Shown here piece by piece: positions 54,001 to 63,000 of a DNA stretch of 64,000 nucleotides; positions within the stretch are counted from its first letter, which is position 1; each line of letters starts with the position of its first letter. A program made the position numbers. This stretch comes from Cyanobacteriota bacterium (GTDB taxonomy: Bacteria > Cyanobacteriota > Cyanobacteriia > Thermostichales > Thermostichaceae): contig JANRIL010000001.1 of assembly GCA_033764955.1 (NCBI GenBank), positions 32,653-96,652 on the forward strand, given 5' to 3'.

Positions 54001-57000
54001 AACGGGGCTTTATCCGGGCGGAAACAGTGGCCTACGGGGATTTGGTCAAGGCGGGATCCCTCAACCAGGCCAAAGAAAAAGGTTGGGTACGCAGTGAGGG
54101 TAAAGAGTATGTGGTGCAGGAGGGAGATGTCATGCACTTCCGCTTTAATGTCTGAGGGGATGGCTGATCCTGCGCGGGATCCCCTAGCCAATTGCTCAGT
54201 TTGCCCTGGAACACTGCCGTTGATCACAGAGATGCTAGAGAGGATTGCGGTAAGCTAGCCAGCAGCTACCTGTCCTGCCCATCCTGGAAGAGCGAAACCG
54301 CTAGCGGTGGATTCCTGGTCAATTTTTTTGAAATTATCTGAAGAAAAAATCTGACTCCATTAAAAGCTAAAAACGCATGATCAGCCTTGTTGAAGGATCC
54401 CTATGAGATGGATAAATTCCAGTTCCCTGGTTGGGTTTTTGGGCAGTTTTGTCCTGGTGGGACTGATCGCTTGGGGTCTCTCGTGGCAGGTGGAAGAGAT
54501 TCAGGTGGATCCCCCCCCGCCTGCCCAGCCCCCTGTCGTCAGCCGCTCCGTCGATCTGATCGGTCGGCGGGGAGGACAGCAGCGCTGGCGACTGTTGGCG
54601 GAAGAAGTGGAGCTAGAGCAGGGGCAGCAAATATTTGATCGCGGAGCGCATGGATTTTTTTACGGCAACCCTAGCACTCCCCAGGATGAGGGGGAGCTGT
54701 TCTTTCGAGATCAGGAAGAAATGGCTTGGGAAGCTAAACAAGCCCGCTACAATCCTGCCGACGATCAGTTGTTTTTGACTGAAGAGGTGGCGGTGAATGG
54801 GCAAGATGGCAGCCAACTGTTAACCAGTGCCCTCAAAGTCACCCCTGAAGAAGCCATCGAAGTCCCCGCTGCTTTCACCCTCAAGGGGGATGAAGTTACC
54901 CTCTCAGGAGAATCAGGAACCTTTAACTTTCAATTTGCCCGCCTGACGGCCAAACAAGGGCGGCTAACTGTGCATGAGCCAGATCCACTGGCGGCTGATG
55001 GCAATACTTCCGCTTCGTCCACCCTGGTAGCCTCGGCCACGACCACCACCACCACCATTACTGCTGATGATTTGCAGTATGACCGTCATAACCAAATCGC
55101 TGAGGGACAAGGCAATTTAGTCATTCAAGATGGCGGCATTGAGATCAAAGCTCCCCAGGGTCGCTATAACCGCAAGGCAGCCCAAAGTATCCTATCCGGG
55201 GGTGTTACCCTGCGAGAGGTCAACCGTTCTCAAGCTAATGGGGATCCTCTTTTAGCCGATCTCACCCTAGTGCAAGCTGAGCCTGCCGATAGCCCCGAGC
55301 AGGAAGTAACCATCATCGCCGATCAACTGACCTATGACCGCAATACCCAAATTGCTCAGGGGGAGGGCAATCTGGAAATTCAACAGGGAGAAACGGTGAT
55401 CGCCGCTCCCACGGGCAGCTATCGCCGCAAAGAGTCCCAGAGCGTCTTAACAGGGGGAGTGACGCTGCGGGAACCCCAGCGGGTCTTACAGGCCGCTCGT
55501 TTGGAAGGGAACCACCGCGACAAGATCTTTTTGTTTGAAGAGAATGTCGTTTATACCCAATTAGCAGAGGGATCCCCGACCTCTGGAGAAGAGACCCTCA
55601 CCGAAGAATTGCGGCGGGCTGAAACGGAGGTAAAGTCCACTCGTCTGGTTTATAACTCCCGTAGCGAAACCTCAGAATTTAGCGATAACGTTGAATTTAT
55701 TCAAAAGAACCGTCAGGCCACCGCTCAGCAGGCCAGAATCACCCCGGAGCAGGTTCTGCTGGAGGGAGATGTGACCATTCAACAGATTCGCGGAGATTGG
55801 CTGGCACGGCGATTGGATAACCCTGAAACCCAGGCGGATGTGGATCGACCCACCCTAATTTTTGCCGACCGCGTAGAAATTGACCAAGCCACCAGTGATG
55901 CTCGTTTTTATGACAACGTCGTGATTGTTCAATCCAACCGTGCCGCCGAAGGAGATAGTGCTATCTATTCGGATCGGCTGCAAACCTTTGAGTTATTGGC
56001 GGAATCTGCACCCGTTTTGCTCTGTGACCGAGGCACAACCGCCGAACTCTTACCCGACTCCATCGAATCCTTGCCGGGACGGGATGCCCTGGATGTCACC
56101 TGCCGTGGAGCCAACAAAACCCAAGCCCAACGCATCAACCTCGATATGGCCAATGACACCTTCACTGCCATTGGTTCGGAAAAAGGGCAAAGCAGTATTC
56201 AGTTCAAAGTCACCAATGAAGCCCCCTAGTTCTGCGCTCCCTCCCGCTTTCGGTTGGCGATATCTCTCAGCCATCTGGGGATCCCTCTGGCTAGGGGGAT
56301 TCTTTTTGGAGGGCTATCTTCTCAAAGAAATGATTCGTCCTTTCTTTTTGGGAGTGGCTGGAGGCACAACCTTATTATTAGGTAACCAACTGTTTCTCTA
56401 TACCGATCTTTTGGTAAAAAAAGGTGTTCCTCCCATTACCATCTTGCAGATTTTGGTCTTAAACCTCCCTGCCATTTTGGTGGTCACTTTTCCGATTGCT
56501 GGACTATTTGCCACCCTCCTCATGTTGGGTCGGATGGGATCCGAGAGTGAGATCACTGCCCTGAGAGCGGCAGGCATCTCCTATCGCCGCCTGTTTATTC
56601 CGGTTTTATGTATTGGCATGGCTATTAGTGTTTTGGCCTTCTTGACTAATGATTTTATTGTCCCTCTCACCAATCAAAAAGTGAGAACCCTCAACCATAA
56701 TTTATTTTTGACCAAAGATGCAGTTTTTTTGGATGCCGAAGAATTTTTTAAGGTGGATGACAACCTCTGGTTTTATATTGGCCGCATTGATCGGGAGACG
56801 GGTTTGATGGAGGATGTGTTGATCCTCGATCGCAAAGCAGAGATCGGATCCCTGCGCTACCCCCAAGTGATCACCGCCCGCACCGCCCGCCAAGAAGGGC
56901 AGGATTGGCTGCTAGAAGGAGCGGTGGTACGCCGTTATGATGACCAGGCGCGCACCTACTACGAAGGGAAAGTGGGCAGAATGCAACTGCATATCGCTGA

Positions 57001-60000: not shown

Positions 60001-63000
60001 CCCGCCGACTGGATTAGGATCAATCCCGGATCCGTAGAATATTTTCAGGCTCTTTATTCCACTCCCGACCAAGAATCGACGGTTACCCTTAATCCCCGAT
60101 TAACCATCACTCCGGCCAAGTGGTCTAGCATTGACATGCGATATAACCGCGTTTTTAATGGCAATAATTCGGTGCCTTTTGAGAGCATCTCTAGTAATCC
60201 CAAGGATACCGACCGGATCAACGCCAATATCAGTTTCTTTACGCCCAAAAATACGCTGCCTAATGTTCCCCCCGGCTATATTGCCTTTGAGGATGATTTG
60301 CCCGGAGAGCTGGCGATTGCGTTGACTTTCCCCGATGATACGACCGAAGATCTAGCGGCGATTGCGGATAAGAGTCAGGCGGAATTACAGGCATCTGTGC
60401 GTAATCTTTTACGACTGGATACTACGGCGGGCTATGATTTTGTTTCCCAAAAATGGGATTTATTGAATGCTAATTTCACCTGGAATACAGCCCCCAATTT
60501 GTTCGATGTGCAGTTACAAACGGGCTATGACCTAAATAATGGGGAGTTTCGGCCCTTTCGACTGCAATATAAGGGGCGCACCACCACCACCTTTGATCGC
60601 AATTTGCGCTCCGGTTTGGACAATTATGAGCCAGGATTTAGCTACGGATTGCAGGCGGTGTATGATCCTAAAAAAGGAGAGATTTCCGACTATAGCCTCG
60701 ACCTAGATGCCACGATTGGCACGCAATGGCAAAATCACTGGCGGTTCCGACTGGGGTTAACCGAAGAGGGGATCCGGCGTGTGGAAGTGCGCCGAGATCT
60801 GCGAGATTTTGAGGTGCGGTTGGCCTATGATCCAACGGCTCAATTGCTGCGATTGGAGGGGATTCTAGTGGCTTTTCCCAGTCGTCCGGTGGGCTTGAGC
60901 CAGGAGCGGGGTGAGTTTTTGTTGACCACCCCCACCAGCAGTTTTAGTTCCGATTCCATCTTGCCCTAGCATGGATGGACAGCAACCAGATAGGGGAGGA
61001 TGAGGTTGAGCAGGCAGGCAAAATGGCTACGGTGGGGCGGCGGGCTGCTGGGGGGGCTAATTCTGGCTGGATGGCTCCCGGATATGGCTTGGGCGCGTCC
61101 GGTGTTGAATGTCAGCATGACCTTGGGCTTGTCGGTGAGTGCGGATTATTGGTACGTGGTGGCGATCAGCAGTGCCAGCCAATCGGGGCCACGGGCTAAT
61201 TTGGTGGATCCCAATGTCAGCACGAGTGGGGATGCGGTGACGTTTGTGTCCGGCTGGGATCACCTGATTCGCGTCAAGCCCCTCAACAACGAAGAGGCAT
61301 TGGTGCAATCCACGATTGAAACGTCGGGATCCCCAGAGCGGGAGTTTGCCAGTGGTTTTAATGAAGTGAATCTGAGCAAAACCACTCGTGAACGGGACAC
61401 CATCAATTTGGTGATTGATTTGGAGGATCTGGGGGGGTTGGATCCCGTCAACAGTGATATCCATGTGGCGTTGCTGACCATCAACGCTCCGTTTCGGGTG
61501 GATGTGGAGGAAACCTCCCTGGCTTTAGATGCCACCAAGGGGATTAGCCCCCATTACTATCGCCTCAGTCTTTCGGATCAACGGCAGGTTTTGGTGGATG
61601 ATCCGCAACGGCAGGAAACCGTCCGACGCAGCCGCGAGCTGATCGAAAACAACAATGCGGGCGGGGTGCGGGATGTCGGCGCGCTGGTGGAAGGGGGATC
61701 CCTAGGGATTTTGGCCGCCAACATTTTGACCTTCAGTTTGGAACTGACTGAGCGCTAGGCTGTGATCTCACCCATTCATCCCATTACAGCCGCTAGTTTT
61801 GCCCTGATTGATCAAGAGATTGGCGAACACGCTTGGTCAGAACCGGAGTATGGGATTGTGCGGCGAGCCATTCATGCCACGGCGGATTTTGAACTGCGGG
61901 ATTTATTTTATTTCAGTCCGACGGCGATTGCGGCGGGAATAGCGGCTTTGCAAGCCAAGTGTCCGGTGATTGTGGATGTACGGATGGTGGCGGCGGGGGT
62001 GGTGGGCGGGTTGCAGCGGCAGGGGATCCCTTGTCACTGTGCCCTGGATACTCTGGGGGATGGGGGGATCGCCGAGGGACAAACCCAAACCGCCACCGGC
62101 ATGTTGGCGTTAGCCCGCGCTTATCCTGAAGGACTTTATCTGATTGGCAACGCTCCTACGGCTCTGCTAGCGATTGTTGAGCAAATTCGTCAGCAGAAGA
62201 TGCAGCCCGCCTTGGTGGTAGGGGTGCCTGTGGGTTTTGTGGCGGTGCAGGAGGCGAAACAAGCCCTGGCCAGCCTAGAGGTTCCCCAGATTCGGGTTTT
62301 GGGGCGCAAAGGGGGATCCCCGGTGGCGGCGGCGATTCTCAATGCTCTGTTAACTTATTCAATCGGTGGTACATAGGGACAAGATCATGATTCGTGATAA
62401 CTAAAATAATCTAATGAGGGGAAGGTTATGGGTAGCGTGGCAAGAGACTCTCATATTGGCAGTGGTAGAATCTCAGCCAATGGGAAATCTGCAAGATCGG
62501 ATCATTTCTGTTATTCAGAATATTCGGAATTATTTCAAAGTACCCCAAAACATATCCAGATTAGTCAGACGGGGACTGTTGTTAAGGGCGCTGGCAGCAG
62601 ATGAAAATCTTGGCTCAAACTGATGCCCTCAACGTTTCTTTGGTAAAAGCCTATACTGGCATCCCAGAGGCGACGGCTTGGTGTGATCGGATCCGTGGGT
62701 TATCCCCCTGCTTTATTTGCGGATTTGCCTTTACCGAAACCGCCCTGATCCCTGGCATTTCAGCGGCGGGGGCTTCTCCGCTAGCCCGTCGCTTTACGGC
62801 GCTGGCCGATGCGGAAGTCTTATTGCAGGGATTTTCCCCCCGTCTGCCCACGTCCCCAGATGGGTATCCCTCTCCAGTAGTGATTAGCCGCGCCATTCTG
62901 TCTCAATTGGACTGGTCAACCTATTTGTTTGATTGCGGCTTACCCGAATCCCTCACCGGATTGATCCGCGTCTCTGAGCAGTCGGGATCCCGCTGTTTGA

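Follow-up and report, generated by a model that had tools for sequence, protein, structure and literature searches.

What would a second set of Lpt-type genes do in a cyanobacterium that already carries the usual one? In the window, the whole 64,000-nucleotide stretch of DNA that we analyzed, our reading of the open frames places four tightly packed genes on the plus strand between 54403 and 61758 (Table 1). Most components of a second, complete Lpt-type exporter, carrying lipids across the envelope beside the usual cyanobacterial one, are probably encoded at this locus. The frames that the survey's finding had assigned to g02298, g02300 and g02301 were recovered at the positions in the table. 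The frame of g02299 is open from 55925, and its likely start is the ATG at 56219, which overlaps the TAG of g02298. The g02299/g02300 junction is an ATGA overlap, 30 nt separate g02300 from g02301, and the operon genes are translationally coupled. The composition of the operon is ordinary: among 491 windows of the genome, its tetranucleotide distance ranks at the 44th percentile. Neighbouring genes around the operon gave no clue to a cargo, and no sphingolipid or other lipid-synthesis genes were found near it.

Table 1 Genes and protein regions of the locus, numbered from the first letter of the window
Feature	Position	Strand	Description
g02298	54403..56229	+	608 aa; LptC-LptA fusion, as judged from alignments
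g02299	56219..57394	+	391 aa; LptF/LptG-family permease, 'type 2' clade
g02300	57391..60969	+	1192 aa; predicted LptD-like outer-membrane protein
g02301	61000..61758	+	252 aa; secreted protein of no known family
g02300 residues 36-400	57496..58590	+	Low-complexity Pro/Ser/Thr/Ala-rich extension
g02300 residues 400-565	58588..59085	+	OstA/LptD_N-type jellyroll region; aligns to solved LptD N-terminal domains and LptA
g02300 residues 566-1160	59086..60870	+	Region homologous to the barrel of LptD-like proteins
g02300 residues 953-1005	60247..60405	+	Conserved acidic insert, in the order's copies only
GGGGAGG	60993..60999	+	Shine-Dalgarno-like stretch read in the sequence, directly 5' of the g02301 ATG

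The protein encoded by g02298 begins with an N-terminal membrane anchor and an LptC-like unit (Pfam LptC, residues 18-150). Behind these, two OstA/LptA-type units stand in tandem (residues 210-290 and 295-375), and more LptC/LptA-like units continue to about residue 533; NCBIfam TIGR04409 matches residues 407-533. The Pfam values previously claimed for this gene were reproduced (LptC 6e-17, LptD_N 6.6e-16, OstA_2 8.4e-09). In relatives from the same phylum but outside the class Cyanobacteriia, a 210-aa LptC aligns with residues 45-141 of g02298 and LptA-like proteins of 361-466 aa align with residues 292-532. Judged from these alignments, g02298 is a fusion of two genes, lptC and an lptA-like gene, that are adjacent in the outside-class relatives.

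The second gene had been called an LptF/LptG-family permease, and g02299 indeed matches PF03739 (LptF_LptG) over its full length (4.7e-87); it falls under both NCBIfam equivalog cut-offs (189.5 vs 230 bits and 188.8 vs 240 bits). Its coupling-helix Glu111 is invariant, as is the corresponding Glu across all three LptF/G types considered here; the role of this residue is described in PMC5082905. Consistent with the survey, g02299 is nearer to the copy on contig C37 (g02362; 42% identity) than to those of outside-class relatives (37-38%). However, g02362 did not prove to be the canonical LptF/G, with g02299 as a third paralogue, that it had been taken for. The LptF/G tree contains three clades, in which the g02299 type and the C37 type are sisters, apart from the lptB-linked type, and both sisters are confined to genomes with the operon. 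Other sampled Cyanobacteriia have a single LptF/G of the lptB-linked type (two in G043). These sister clades and their restriction to operon genomes argue for two permeases belonging to the second system and one to the usual system; on this phylogenetic evidence, the unlinked C37 gene belongs to the second system. The two permeases of the order (Thermostichales) are sisters of one another and do not match the outside-class pair one to one as orthologues: AU tests, on groups defined once the tree was known, rejected three of the four order/outside-class pairings (p 3e-5 to 7e-4). We therefore infer their pairing as a heterodimer from co-occurrence only.

The third protein, g02300, consists of a signal peptide, a Pro-rich extension, an OstA-type jellyroll region and a long C-terminal region, and matched no Pfam or NCBIfam family, PF04453 and PF12600 included. 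When families were compared with hhalign, that of g02300 aligned to an LptD-named family with a probability of 100% (E 2.7e-72) over 694 columns reaching the C terminus, and the LptD-named family in turn matched solved LptD (7omm, 5e-25; 8h1r, 4e-21). A profile of the order's g02300 sequences alone found no solved LptD, so the link needs intermediates; as a sequence argument it is transitive but strong. A profile of the order's sequences found 226 representatives at E <= 1e-3, some source-named 'LPS-assembly protein LptD' of Sericytochromatia, and the best of the 226 are 84%, 70% and 99.9% identical to LptD-like proteins of the outside-class genomes G475, G429 and G457, respectively. In the ESM Atlas, g02300 scored 0.97 to LptD_N/OstA clusters, with neighbours in Margulisiibacteriota, Armatimonadota and Deinococcota. 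Both this score and the 43 relatives besides g02300 itself among 5.8 billion sequences agree with the survey.

Several features set the order's copies apart. The extension of g02300 is 17.5% Pro, and it is 160-520 aa long in the order's full-length members, whereas the median across 39 distant relatives is 33 aa. The jellyroll ends in a TT(S) motif, with Ser in 13/13 order rows and Cys (TTC) in 39/39 distant rows, and mature g02300 has no Cys. Within the order's alignment the acidic insert is conserved; in the 39 distant relatives its occupancy is <=0.13, save one column in the span at 0.77. All 53 rows share the Pro in FPLF, the first barrel motif. The stem of the g02300 clade is long (1.02 substitutions per site), and this, with the loss of Cys, could mean a changed or relaxed function.

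The last gene, g02301, has no sequence relatives in Pfam, NCBIfam or PDB, and in a profile search its family was limited to this lineage. The signal peptide is conserved, ending in AWA directly before RP, and because the protein has no Cys it is not a lipoprotein. Identity to 16 orthologues is 46-60%, with 42 invariant columns. Of the 29 other genomes of the order, g02301 is found in the very 26 that have the operon, including those in which the gene is unlinked. Neither a kinship to LptE nor one to the lipoprotein encoded after lptD in outside-class loci was detectable. We regard g02301 as a candidate accessory of the translocon.

The rest of the genome holds the usual set. The inventory of the whole genome comprises three PF03739 genes, one PF12600 gene, one LptB over the cut-off, an LptC on contig C23 and an LptA-like gene on C28; PF04453 and LptE were not found in this 89% complete genome. 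The survey had likewise counted three LptF/G and one PF12600, and had seen no LptE in the operon. As only one LptB exceeds the cut-off, there is no second LptB. The PF12600 (DUF3769) protein, called LptD in PMC4365693, accompanies an lptA-lptB-LptF/G (type 1) cluster. It and g02300 are both LptD derivatives with an OstA-type N terminus, present in one genome, and the two types align over the jellyroll only (84 columns, probability 58%). DUF3769 is found in 128/128 class genomes sampled, whereas the long type is found in this order and G157 only.

From the components and homology documented above, we infer every step of assembly and transport that follows. The inner-membrane permease pair would be g02299 and its unlinked C37 paralogue, powered by the genome's single LptB, which would be shared with the usual system. 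The N-terminal helix of g02298 would hold this protein in the inner membrane, and its LptC-like unit would take up the cargo. From there a covalent chain of four or more OstA/LptA-type units would lead the cargo to the g02300 jellyroll, and the LptD-type C-terminal region of g02300 would place it in the outer leaflet of the outer membrane. A constant companion of the set, g02301 may be an accessory in the periplasm or the outer membrane. The parts list is that of the proteobacterial LptB2FGC-LptA-LptDE system (E. coli, Neisseria, Pseudomonas), with homology via intermediate profiles: permeases with the conserved Glu of the coupling helix, an LptC unit anchored in the membrane, units of OstA/LptA type, and an LptD-like jellyroll with a long C-terminal region. 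Unlike that system, the second set lacks a PF04453 match, LptE and the Cys pair; a single 608-aa chain combines LptC and LptA; the g02300 jellyroll comes after a Pro-rich extension of 365 aa; a further partner of 252 aa belongs to no known family; and the ATPase gene sits with the other, usual system.

The long coexistence of two routes suggests that their cargos differ, and we think that the second carries a lipid or lipid-anchored molecule other than bulk LPS, or a distinct LPS form. Neither a Kdo transferase nor LpxK was found in the order. Caulobacter LptF2/LptG2/LptC2, described in 10.64898/2026.04.12.717747 as a sphingolipid transporter using the LPS LptB, is similar in having a second LptF/G pair without its own LptB and a cargo other than LPS. 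The authors report no duplicated LptA, LptD or LptE, whereas here the bridge and the outer-membrane protein are also duplicated.

It is possible, though we judge it the less likely case, that both routes export the same cyanobacterial LPS and that the long-LptD route is a back-up or serves particular conditions such as high temperature or envelope stress. Of the two LptD families, the long one lies nearest to solved LPS translocons (5e-25, compared to 9e-5 for DUF3769). Moreover, short LptD-like proteins occur in 23/158 outside-class genomes, which are 23/37 of those outside families f50 and f51, and in 0/108 genomes of f50 and 0/13 of f51, where the long LptD would thus have to carry LPS. Loss of the second system is also tolerated without loss of the lineage. 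Yet the five genes are intact in 26/29 genomes of the order and in several outside-class families, which would be rare under plain redundancy, and the order's g02300 is much diverged (Cys pair lost, 53-aa insert, 160-520-aa extension, long stem). Neither a Kdo transferase nor LpxK was found in the order.

Less probable still is that lipoproteins, and not a glycolipid, are moved to the cell surface, as is described for the LptD homologues of Borrelia (BB0838; 10.1101/2022.12.21.521298) and Bacteroidota (expanded LptD translocon; 10.64898/2026.10.03.756453). Such cases involve either a distant homologue of LptD or an LptD complex enlarged by additional subunits, with a cargo other than LPS. The outside-class relatives have lptF-lptG-long lptD operons with a divergent lptC-lptA, and the divergent genes follow lnt (apolipoprotein N-acyltransferase) in two loci. 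In 5/7 outside-class loci, the long lptD is followed by a gene for a conserved lipoprotein. However, the lnt tie is one of neighbourhood alone and does not recur in the window; g02301 is not a lipoprotein; and the published cases use a single Lpt pathway, none duplicated, whereas two parallel pathways coexist here.

Among the 29 other genomes of the order, one and the same group of 26 has g02298, the g02299 type, full-length g02300, g02301 and the C37 type, matching the count claimed earlier for g02300, which is found in both families of the order. All five are missing from G005, G006 and G007, which retain two lptB-type LptF/G. Of 371 class genomes from beyond the order, only G157 yielded type-2 LptF/G and full-length g02300; this genome too holds the set. 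Absence from three order genomes and presence in only 1/371 other class genomes sampled indicate that the system is dispensable. It is very improbable, in our view, that the genes are functionless today, a relic decaying toward loss. The set is gone from those three genomes and from nearly all other sampled cyanobacteria, a stop lies inside the LptD-like gene of G157, in-frame stops interrupt the C37-type match of G012 (1 TAA) and G017 (2 TAG), and the stem branch is long; but frames are open and full-length in 26/29 order genomes, g02300 shows 46-77% identity and g02301 46-60%, both with invariant motifs, gene overlaps and the ribosome-binding site are kept, and g02301 is retained even when unlinked.

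In the LptD tree, the order forms a clade (support 100) sister to one with all outside-class rows (97), the two joined at 99 against 26 others. Profiles and this tree agree with the survey that a second Lpt-type set beside the DUF3769 type is shared with phylum members outside the class. Recent horizontal acquisition of the operon by the order from another phylum is accordingly highly doubtful: LptF/G relatives do occur beyond the phylum, the closest named in Halanaerobiales (34%) and a Chloroflexi-labelled MAG (38%), and so do the Atlas neighbours listed above, but the best matches worldwide are the phylum's own outside-class members, these form one clade with the order, the composition is typical of the genome and the set is in both families of the order.

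The outside-class operons hold the closest sequence relatives of g02300 anywhere (about 20-22% identity; some source-named Sericytochromatia/Tanganyikabacteria) and share the gene order, with LptF/G before LptD. LptF/G lies immediately 5' of the LptD-like gene in 7/7 loci with a match (an eighth, L053 of G575 in f50, had none), and LptC and LptA-like genes are close by in 4/7. They differ in having two adjacent permease genes, where here one is linked and one unlinked; separate lptC and lptA; a lipoprotein gene, not g02301, after lptD; and retained Cys motifs. Many outside-class genomes also carry a short DUF3769-like LptD and an lptB-linked LptF/G. This short LptD aligns with DUF3769 over the full length (probability 99.3%, E 3e-20), and its best match in this genome is the DUF3769 gene. 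The duplication is thus older than the survey implied: outside-class genomes with both long and short LptD indicate that two Lpt routes predate the photosynthetic class. The set would have descended vertically from an lptC-lptA / lptF-lptG-lptD cluster persisting in outside-class members, and almost the whole photosynthetic class would later have retained the DUF3769 route alone. A hot-spring cyanobacterium would thus retain a second Lpt gene set that almost all other cyanobacteria have lost and that its outside-class relatives share.

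The survey's finding of a second Lpt-type gene set in this Thermostichaceae genome (G000) was confirmed, and its ORFs, domains, inventory and distribution are as we found them here. All four ORFs are read in the same direction, one behind the other. The likely ATG of g02299 overlaps the TAG of g02298, an ATGA overlap joins the g02299 stop to the g02300 start codon, and 30 nt separate g02300 from g02301, whose ATG is preceded by GGGGAGG. Upstream, ychF lies 248 nt from the operon. Downstream lies cbiC, which may share a transcript with the Lpt genes but is unrelated to them in function. 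Promoter and terminator consensus scans of the operon did no better than shuffles (5 vs 5.8 and 11 vs 10.4, respectively), and no lipid or glycan genes were found among the neighbours from 30 to 64 kb. A 589-aa protein encoded elsewhere in the window matches no Pfam family and has two alike helical segments ('...RLV..........IEN.LSE.GN.LDE...') flanking its C-terminal half on either side.

Coordinates of the operon and of other genes discussed in the text (L, fetched loci; G and C, sampled genomes and contigs)
Feature	Position	Strand	Remark
g02298	window 54403..56229	+	608-aa ORF
g02299	window 56219 (likely ATG) to 57394	+	permease frame
g02300	window 57391..60969	+	1192-aa ORF
g02301	window 61000..61758	+	252-aa ORF
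cbiC (precorrin-8X methylmutase)	window 61762..62376	+	GTG start, 3 nt past g02301 stop
589-aa protein	window 49689..51458	-	Pro-rich middle
Post-lptD lipoprotein	L047:10628-11482	+	outside-class locus
Post-lptD lipoprotein	L046:10583-11437	+	outside-class locus
Post-lptD lipoprotein	L049:7119-7943	-	outside-class locus
Post-lptD lipoprotein	L048:5194-6048	-	outside-class locus
Post-lptD lipoprotein	L051:6985-7935	-	outside-class locus
Short LptD of G431	L074:3702-5405	+	567 aa
C37-type permease match	G012:C58:27385-28527		1 in-frame TAA
C37-type permease match	G017:C60:13080-14189		2 in-frame TAG
Permease locus L058	G004:C1:4919000-4929000		g02299-type and C37-type genes on opposite strands

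Searched alone at E <= 0.01, g02300 had no match among Pfam or NCBIfam families, PF04453 and PF19838 (LptD_2) included, and it matched neither Pfam LptD_N nor PF12600 (DUF3769), the LptD of the usual cyanobacterial route. A word-index search returned 43 other relatives at 47-77% identity, with named sources in Thermostichus, hot-spring Synechococcus, PCC 7336 and a few 'Cyanobacteria bacterium' MAGs. A profile built from six of these relatives (A1) recovered 226 proteins at E <= 1e-3 from 1.84 billion representatives; 53 of them reached <= 1e-10, and 8 reached <= 1e-30. Some of the distant matches, from Candidatus Sericytochromatia, Tanganyikabacteria and a compost metagenome, are named 'LPS-assembly protein LptD' by their sources. 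A Pfam scan of 42 distant matches gave weak LptD_N in 15 and some jellyroll family in 18, and PF04453 or PF12600 in none. Alignment of A1 with a profile of 38 distant members (A5) by hhalign extended from the jellyroll to the C-terminus (probability 100%, E 2.7e-72, 694 columns). A5 in turn matched solved LptD proteins (7omm, 5.2e-25; 8h1r, 3.7e-21), and the 8h1r match enters the barrel, reaching chain residue 438. The link from g02300 to solved LptD is transitive, because A1 alone finds no solved protein. These alignments suggest that the C-terminal region of g02300 is homologous to the LptD barrel region. The region from residue 400, an N-terminal jellyroll of OstA/LptD_N type, can be aligned with LptA and with the N-terminal domains of solved LptD if the profile includes intermediates; the alignment between the g02300 and DUF3769 families covers the jellyroll only. 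In the Atlas, g02300 scored 0.97 with clusters carrying LptD_N or 'OstA' from Margulisiibacteriota, Armatimonadota and Deinococcota. Solved LptD barrels have 26 strands; a crude amphipathicity scan and a strand count by hydrophobic alternation were non-discriminating on g02300.

Several landmarks of LptD could be followed through the family. The proline of the first barrel motif, FPLF, is invariant in all 53 rows of alignment A2, and that of ILPG is present in 14/14 rows from the order Thermostichales and 22/39 distant rows. In 7omm, the profile proline aligns with the proline of 'YTPW'. Conserved prolines in the first barrel strands of LptD mark its lateral gate, and the prolines followed here may be their counterparts. 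Cysteines for an interdomain disulfide are lacking: mature g02300 has none, and the only three, at positions 4, 14 and 15, belong to the signal peptide. The TTC cysteine column holds serine in 13/13 order rows but cysteine in 39/39 distant rows, and the C-terminal cysteine column holds aspartate in 14/14 order rows but cysteine in 24/39 distant ones. Peculiar to the order is a conserved acidic insert of 53 aa (residues 953-1005 of g02300), and the Pro-rich stretch before the jellyroll measures 160-520 aa there compared to a median of 33 in distant relatives. PF04390, the family of the LptE partner, had no match in this 89%-complete genome.

In g02298, a hydrophobic N-terminus that could anchor the protein in the membrane precedes an LptC unit (PF06835, 6e-17, residues 18-150), and LptD_N (PF03968, 6.6e-16) and OstA_2 (PF13100) also match. 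TIGR04409 (LptC) matches a second time at residues 407-533, TIGR03002 (LptA) reaches 62.2 bits, under its cut-off of 71.7, and OstA-type units form a tandem pair at residues 210-290 and 295-375. Searched alone against solved proteins, g02298 found nothing at 0.01. Residues 45-141 align with the LptC, and residues 292-532 with the LptA-like protein, of Cyanobacteriota beyond the class Cyanobacteriia (hereafter outside-class genomes); since both parts align with separate proteins, g02298 is a fusion of the outside-class lptC and lptA-like genes. The protein of the fourth gene, g02301, has no cysteine, no Pfam or NCBIfam match and no sequence kinship with solved proteins, LptE included (best E 0.67).

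We then turned to the permeases. The PF03739 match of g02299 is full-length (4.7e-87, profile positions 2-353 of 353). Its scores fall below the equivalog cut-offs for both LptF (189.5 vs 230 bits) and LptG (188.8 vs 240), as do those of the other LptF/G paralogues and of outside-class copies. Glu111 is invariant in 9/9 aligned LptF/G proteins of all three types, within the motif SE[IMVL]. In E. coli the coupling-helix glutamate is described as strictly conserved and docking on LptB (PMC5082905), and we infer that Glu111 is the equivalent of E84/E88. The Lpt inventory of the genome, at 89% completeness, agreed with the survey: three PF03739 proteins (g02299 and those on contigs C42 and C37), one PF12600 protein with an LptD_N part (C48), one LptB over the cut-off among 85 ABC-type matches, adjoining the C42 permease, an LptC on C23 and a 145-aa LptA-like protein on C28. 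PF04453 had no match anywhere in the genome.

The survey had also paired the C42 and C37 permeases as the usual LptF and LptG, and this had to be corrected. In a quick IQ-TREE analysis of 41 LptF/G sequences (one 227-aa fragment dropped), C42 fell in an lptB-linked clade (support 100) that took in every copy of the other Cyanobacteriia and, from three outside-class genomes, a single copy each. An order-only clade (98) united the g02299 type (97) and the C37 type (100) as sisters, and an outside-class clade (97) held the genes upstream of lptD and two unlinked copies. PF03739 matches numbered three in every genome of the order with g02300 (four in G004 and G011) and two in G005, G006 and G007, both G005 copies being of the lptB type. 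Over 401 class genomes, g02299 as query at E <= 1e-60 matched G000, the 26 other order genomes that have g02300 and G157, a class genome outside the order, with two matches per genome except one each in G004 and G157; G004 holds a divergent, lower-scoring C37-type copy. Identity to g02299 was 52-76% for its own type and 40-44% for the C37 type. Leaving G157 aside, 13 different class genomes from outside the order were checked: 12 had one PF03739 match and G043 had two; the typed copies of G033, G037 and G044 and both of G043 were of the lptB type. The tree and the counts therefore argue that the second system owns two permeases and that the usual one appears to use one. In cyanobacteria outside the order (G030-G040 and G044; loci L063-L067), an apparently single LptF/G gene follows lptA-lptB.

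The strict co-occurrence of the g02299 and C37 gene types leads us to infer that their products are partners working with an LptB dimer. A dedicated ATPase beside the C37-type permease was considered and rejected: an ABC ATPase stands there in G004, G001 and G157; in G004 and G157 it is part of a FecCD/TonB-receptor cluster, and none lies beside the C37 gene in G000 or G019. Two C37-type matches, in G012 and G017, carry in-frame stops that could reflect sequencing error or decay of the unlinked partner. At L058 in G004, the g02299-type and C37-type genes sit side by side about 5 kb from g02298, adjoining a FecCD/ABC/TonB-receptor iron-uptake cluster, and the C37-type copy has a very long branch (1.94).

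We next considered how far the set extends. The reported occurrence of g02300 orthologues in 26/29 other genomes of the order was reproduced, and g02298, g02301 and both type-2 permeases (the g02299 and C37 types) share the same pattern. By family, the set is present in 22/22 genomes of f1 and 4/7 of f2; it is absent from G005, G006 and G007, and G006 gave a fragment match only (115 positions, 2e-5). The 26/29 pattern holds for g02301 even though it is unlinked in genus g8, the G019 copy lying 1.6 Mb from the operon. Across 371 class genomes outside the order, a full-length g02300 match was found in one, G157 (1215 bits, one internal TAA), and 19 others gave weak jellyroll matches only. Identity between the G157 genes and their G004 counterparts is 57-72%; both sets sit in the same neighbourhood (TonB receptor, FecCD genes, thioesterase), and the GC of the G157 genes (0.45-0.46) equals that of the contig bearing G157's own lptB. 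Loci L045 (G157:C158) and L077 (G157:C367) together hold the whole set, arranged as in G004, with g02300 split by the TAA into frames of 279 and 638 aa. This set could represent retention, transfer or a mis-binned contig.

Outside the class, 45/225 genomes of a phylum sample matched A1 (1e-26 to 1e-5). PF12600 was found in 128/128 class genomes but in 1/173 outside the class, weakly, and PF04453 in 0/5 outside-class genomes. Across eight order-type loci, a g02299 homologue directly precedes g02300 in six, with g02298 before it in four, and g02301 directly follows in two; G004 and G157 are rearranged. Outside the class, LptF/G directly precedes the LptD-like gene in 7/7 loci (two genes in four, one in three), g02298-like genes lie nearby in 4/7, and an eighth locus, L053 (G575, family f50), had no match at all. 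A divergent unit in these loci comprises, by Pfam, lnt, lptC (~210 aa) and a multi-unit lptA-like gene (361-463 aa). In 5/7, the long lptD overlaps or adjoins at its end a gene for a conserved lipoprotein of ~280 aa (275-285; lipobox LAGC/VGC) that belongs to no Pfam family, a place that might suit an LptE-like partner. Kinship of g02301 with this lipoprotein was unsupported (hhalign probabilities 0.6%, 0.1% and 3.2%, the last at E 0.014), and the lipoprotein family had no match in G000.

The survey had interpreted the genes as a second Lpt set shared with lineages outside the class. That core stands; its permease inventory and its age for the duplication did not. The two best A1 matches anywhere are 84% and 70% identical to LptD-like proteins of the outside-class genomes G475 and G429. 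A quick LG+G4 tree of 58 LptD-like proteins, from which rows under 600 aa and P0054 (a duplicate of the G457 row) were left out, paired the order clade (100; stem 1.02) with a sister clade (97) into which all 16 outside-class rows fall; 26 others lie outside this pair (99). Recent transfer of the operon was rejected: its composition is ordinary, with a tetranucleotide make-up that ranks at the 44th percentile among 491 windows of the genome. From best matches, tree and composition we read vertical descent with later losses. A one-to-one correspondence between the order's permeases and the outside-class pair was rejected in all three completed pairings of four (AU p 3e-5, 3.5e-4 and 7e-4, for groups named after the tree was seen).

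The lone weak PF12600 match outside the class, a G431 protein with weak LptD_N, led to a second, shorter LptD-like type in these genomes. Its homologues (L120-L133), called here short LptD, are 443-642 aa as called ORFs, 24-80% identical over nearly the whole length, and occur in 23/158 outside-class genomes: 6/8 in f49, 17/29 in six further families, 0/108 in f50 and 0/13 in f51. Their alignment (A7) matched that of DUF3769 (A6) over the full length (probability 99.3%, E 3.2e-20, 452 columns) and A1 over the first half only (probability 96%, E 1.6e-9). In G000, the best A7 match was the DUF3769 gene (1.9e-18) compared to 2e-5 for g02300. Over 484 columns (E 1e-23), DUF3769 itself aligned with the general family of LptD-like proteins, but it reached solved LptD at no better than 9e-5. 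Outside-class genomes with short LptD also hold an lptB-linked permease with an LptC-like gene. Since both routes occur in outside-class genomes, one with short LptD and the lptB-linked permease and the other with long LptD (the g02300 kind) and type-2 permeases, the two seem to be older than the class Cyanobacteriia. Short LptD is the likely forerunner of the cyanobacterial DUF3769 LptD. PF12600 also matched in Thermus thermophilus, a control genome, and the short type therefore reaches beyond Cyanobacteriota; this bacterium is generally held to be without LPS.

In the mechanism we propose, g02299 and the C37 protein would join an LptB dimer, g02298 would serve as single-chain bridge, g02300 as translocon and g02301 as accessory. 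Caulobacter has been described as having a second LptFG pair that works with the LptB of LPS export; the authors report that they found no duplicated LptA, LptD or LptE (10.64898/2026.04.12.717747). That work reports duplication of inner-membrane parts alone, whereas the G000 set includes bridge and translocon too. Neighbouring genes gave no hint of the cargo. Our tentative reading, which we hold to be possible rather than probable, is that two parallel Lpt routes with different cargos existed at the origin of Cyanobacteriota. The long route, found among the oxygenic cyanobacteria sampled only in Thermostichales and, with a stop, in G157, would carry a cargo different from bulk LPS, for instance surface lipoproteins or a separate glycolipid, through a single-chain LptC-LptA bridge and a disulfide-free LptD, with the non-lipoprotein g02301 in LptE's place; the DUF3769 LptD that all other cyanobacteria have would derive from the short route. 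That surface lipoproteins are the cargo of the long route strikes us as improbable when taken as the specific answer; in its favour, LptD homologues are described as moving surface lipoproteins in Borrelia (10.1101/2022.12.21.521298) and Bacteroidota (10.64898/2026.10.03.756453). Classical Kdo-lipid A was rejected as cargo: neither Kdo transferase (PF04413) nor LpxK (PF02606) turned up in the order (0/30 genomes) or in outside-class genomes (0/5), with positive controls in E. coli, Caulobacter and Bacteroides.

PMC4365693 equates cyanobacterial LptD with DUF3769. A full-text literature search, without supplements, found no published account of a second LptD or duplicated Lpt route in cyanobacteria; most of the full-text searches likewise found no fully duplicated Lpt pathway, bridge and translocon included, and none of the matches listed paired 'LptD' with Sericytochromatia, Melainabacteria, Thermostichus or Vampirovibrionia. 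How the outer membrane is built in cyanobacteria, and by descent in plastids, is poorly known. If the usual cyanobacterial Lpt transporter does have a single LptF/G, its permease would be a homodimer, in contrast to E. coli with its LptF/LptG heterodimer. The Thermostichales, which we take to be an early-branching cyanobacterial order, have an LptD-like protein from a wider family that lies far nearer to the solved LPS translocons than DUF3769 does. Two routes that seem to have coexisted before the photosynthetic class, with separate permease types and separate outer-membrane proteins, provide a likely origin for DUF3769. Finally, G004, which has the second route, and its sister genomes G005-G007, which do not, amount to a natural experiment that could reveal the route's cargo.
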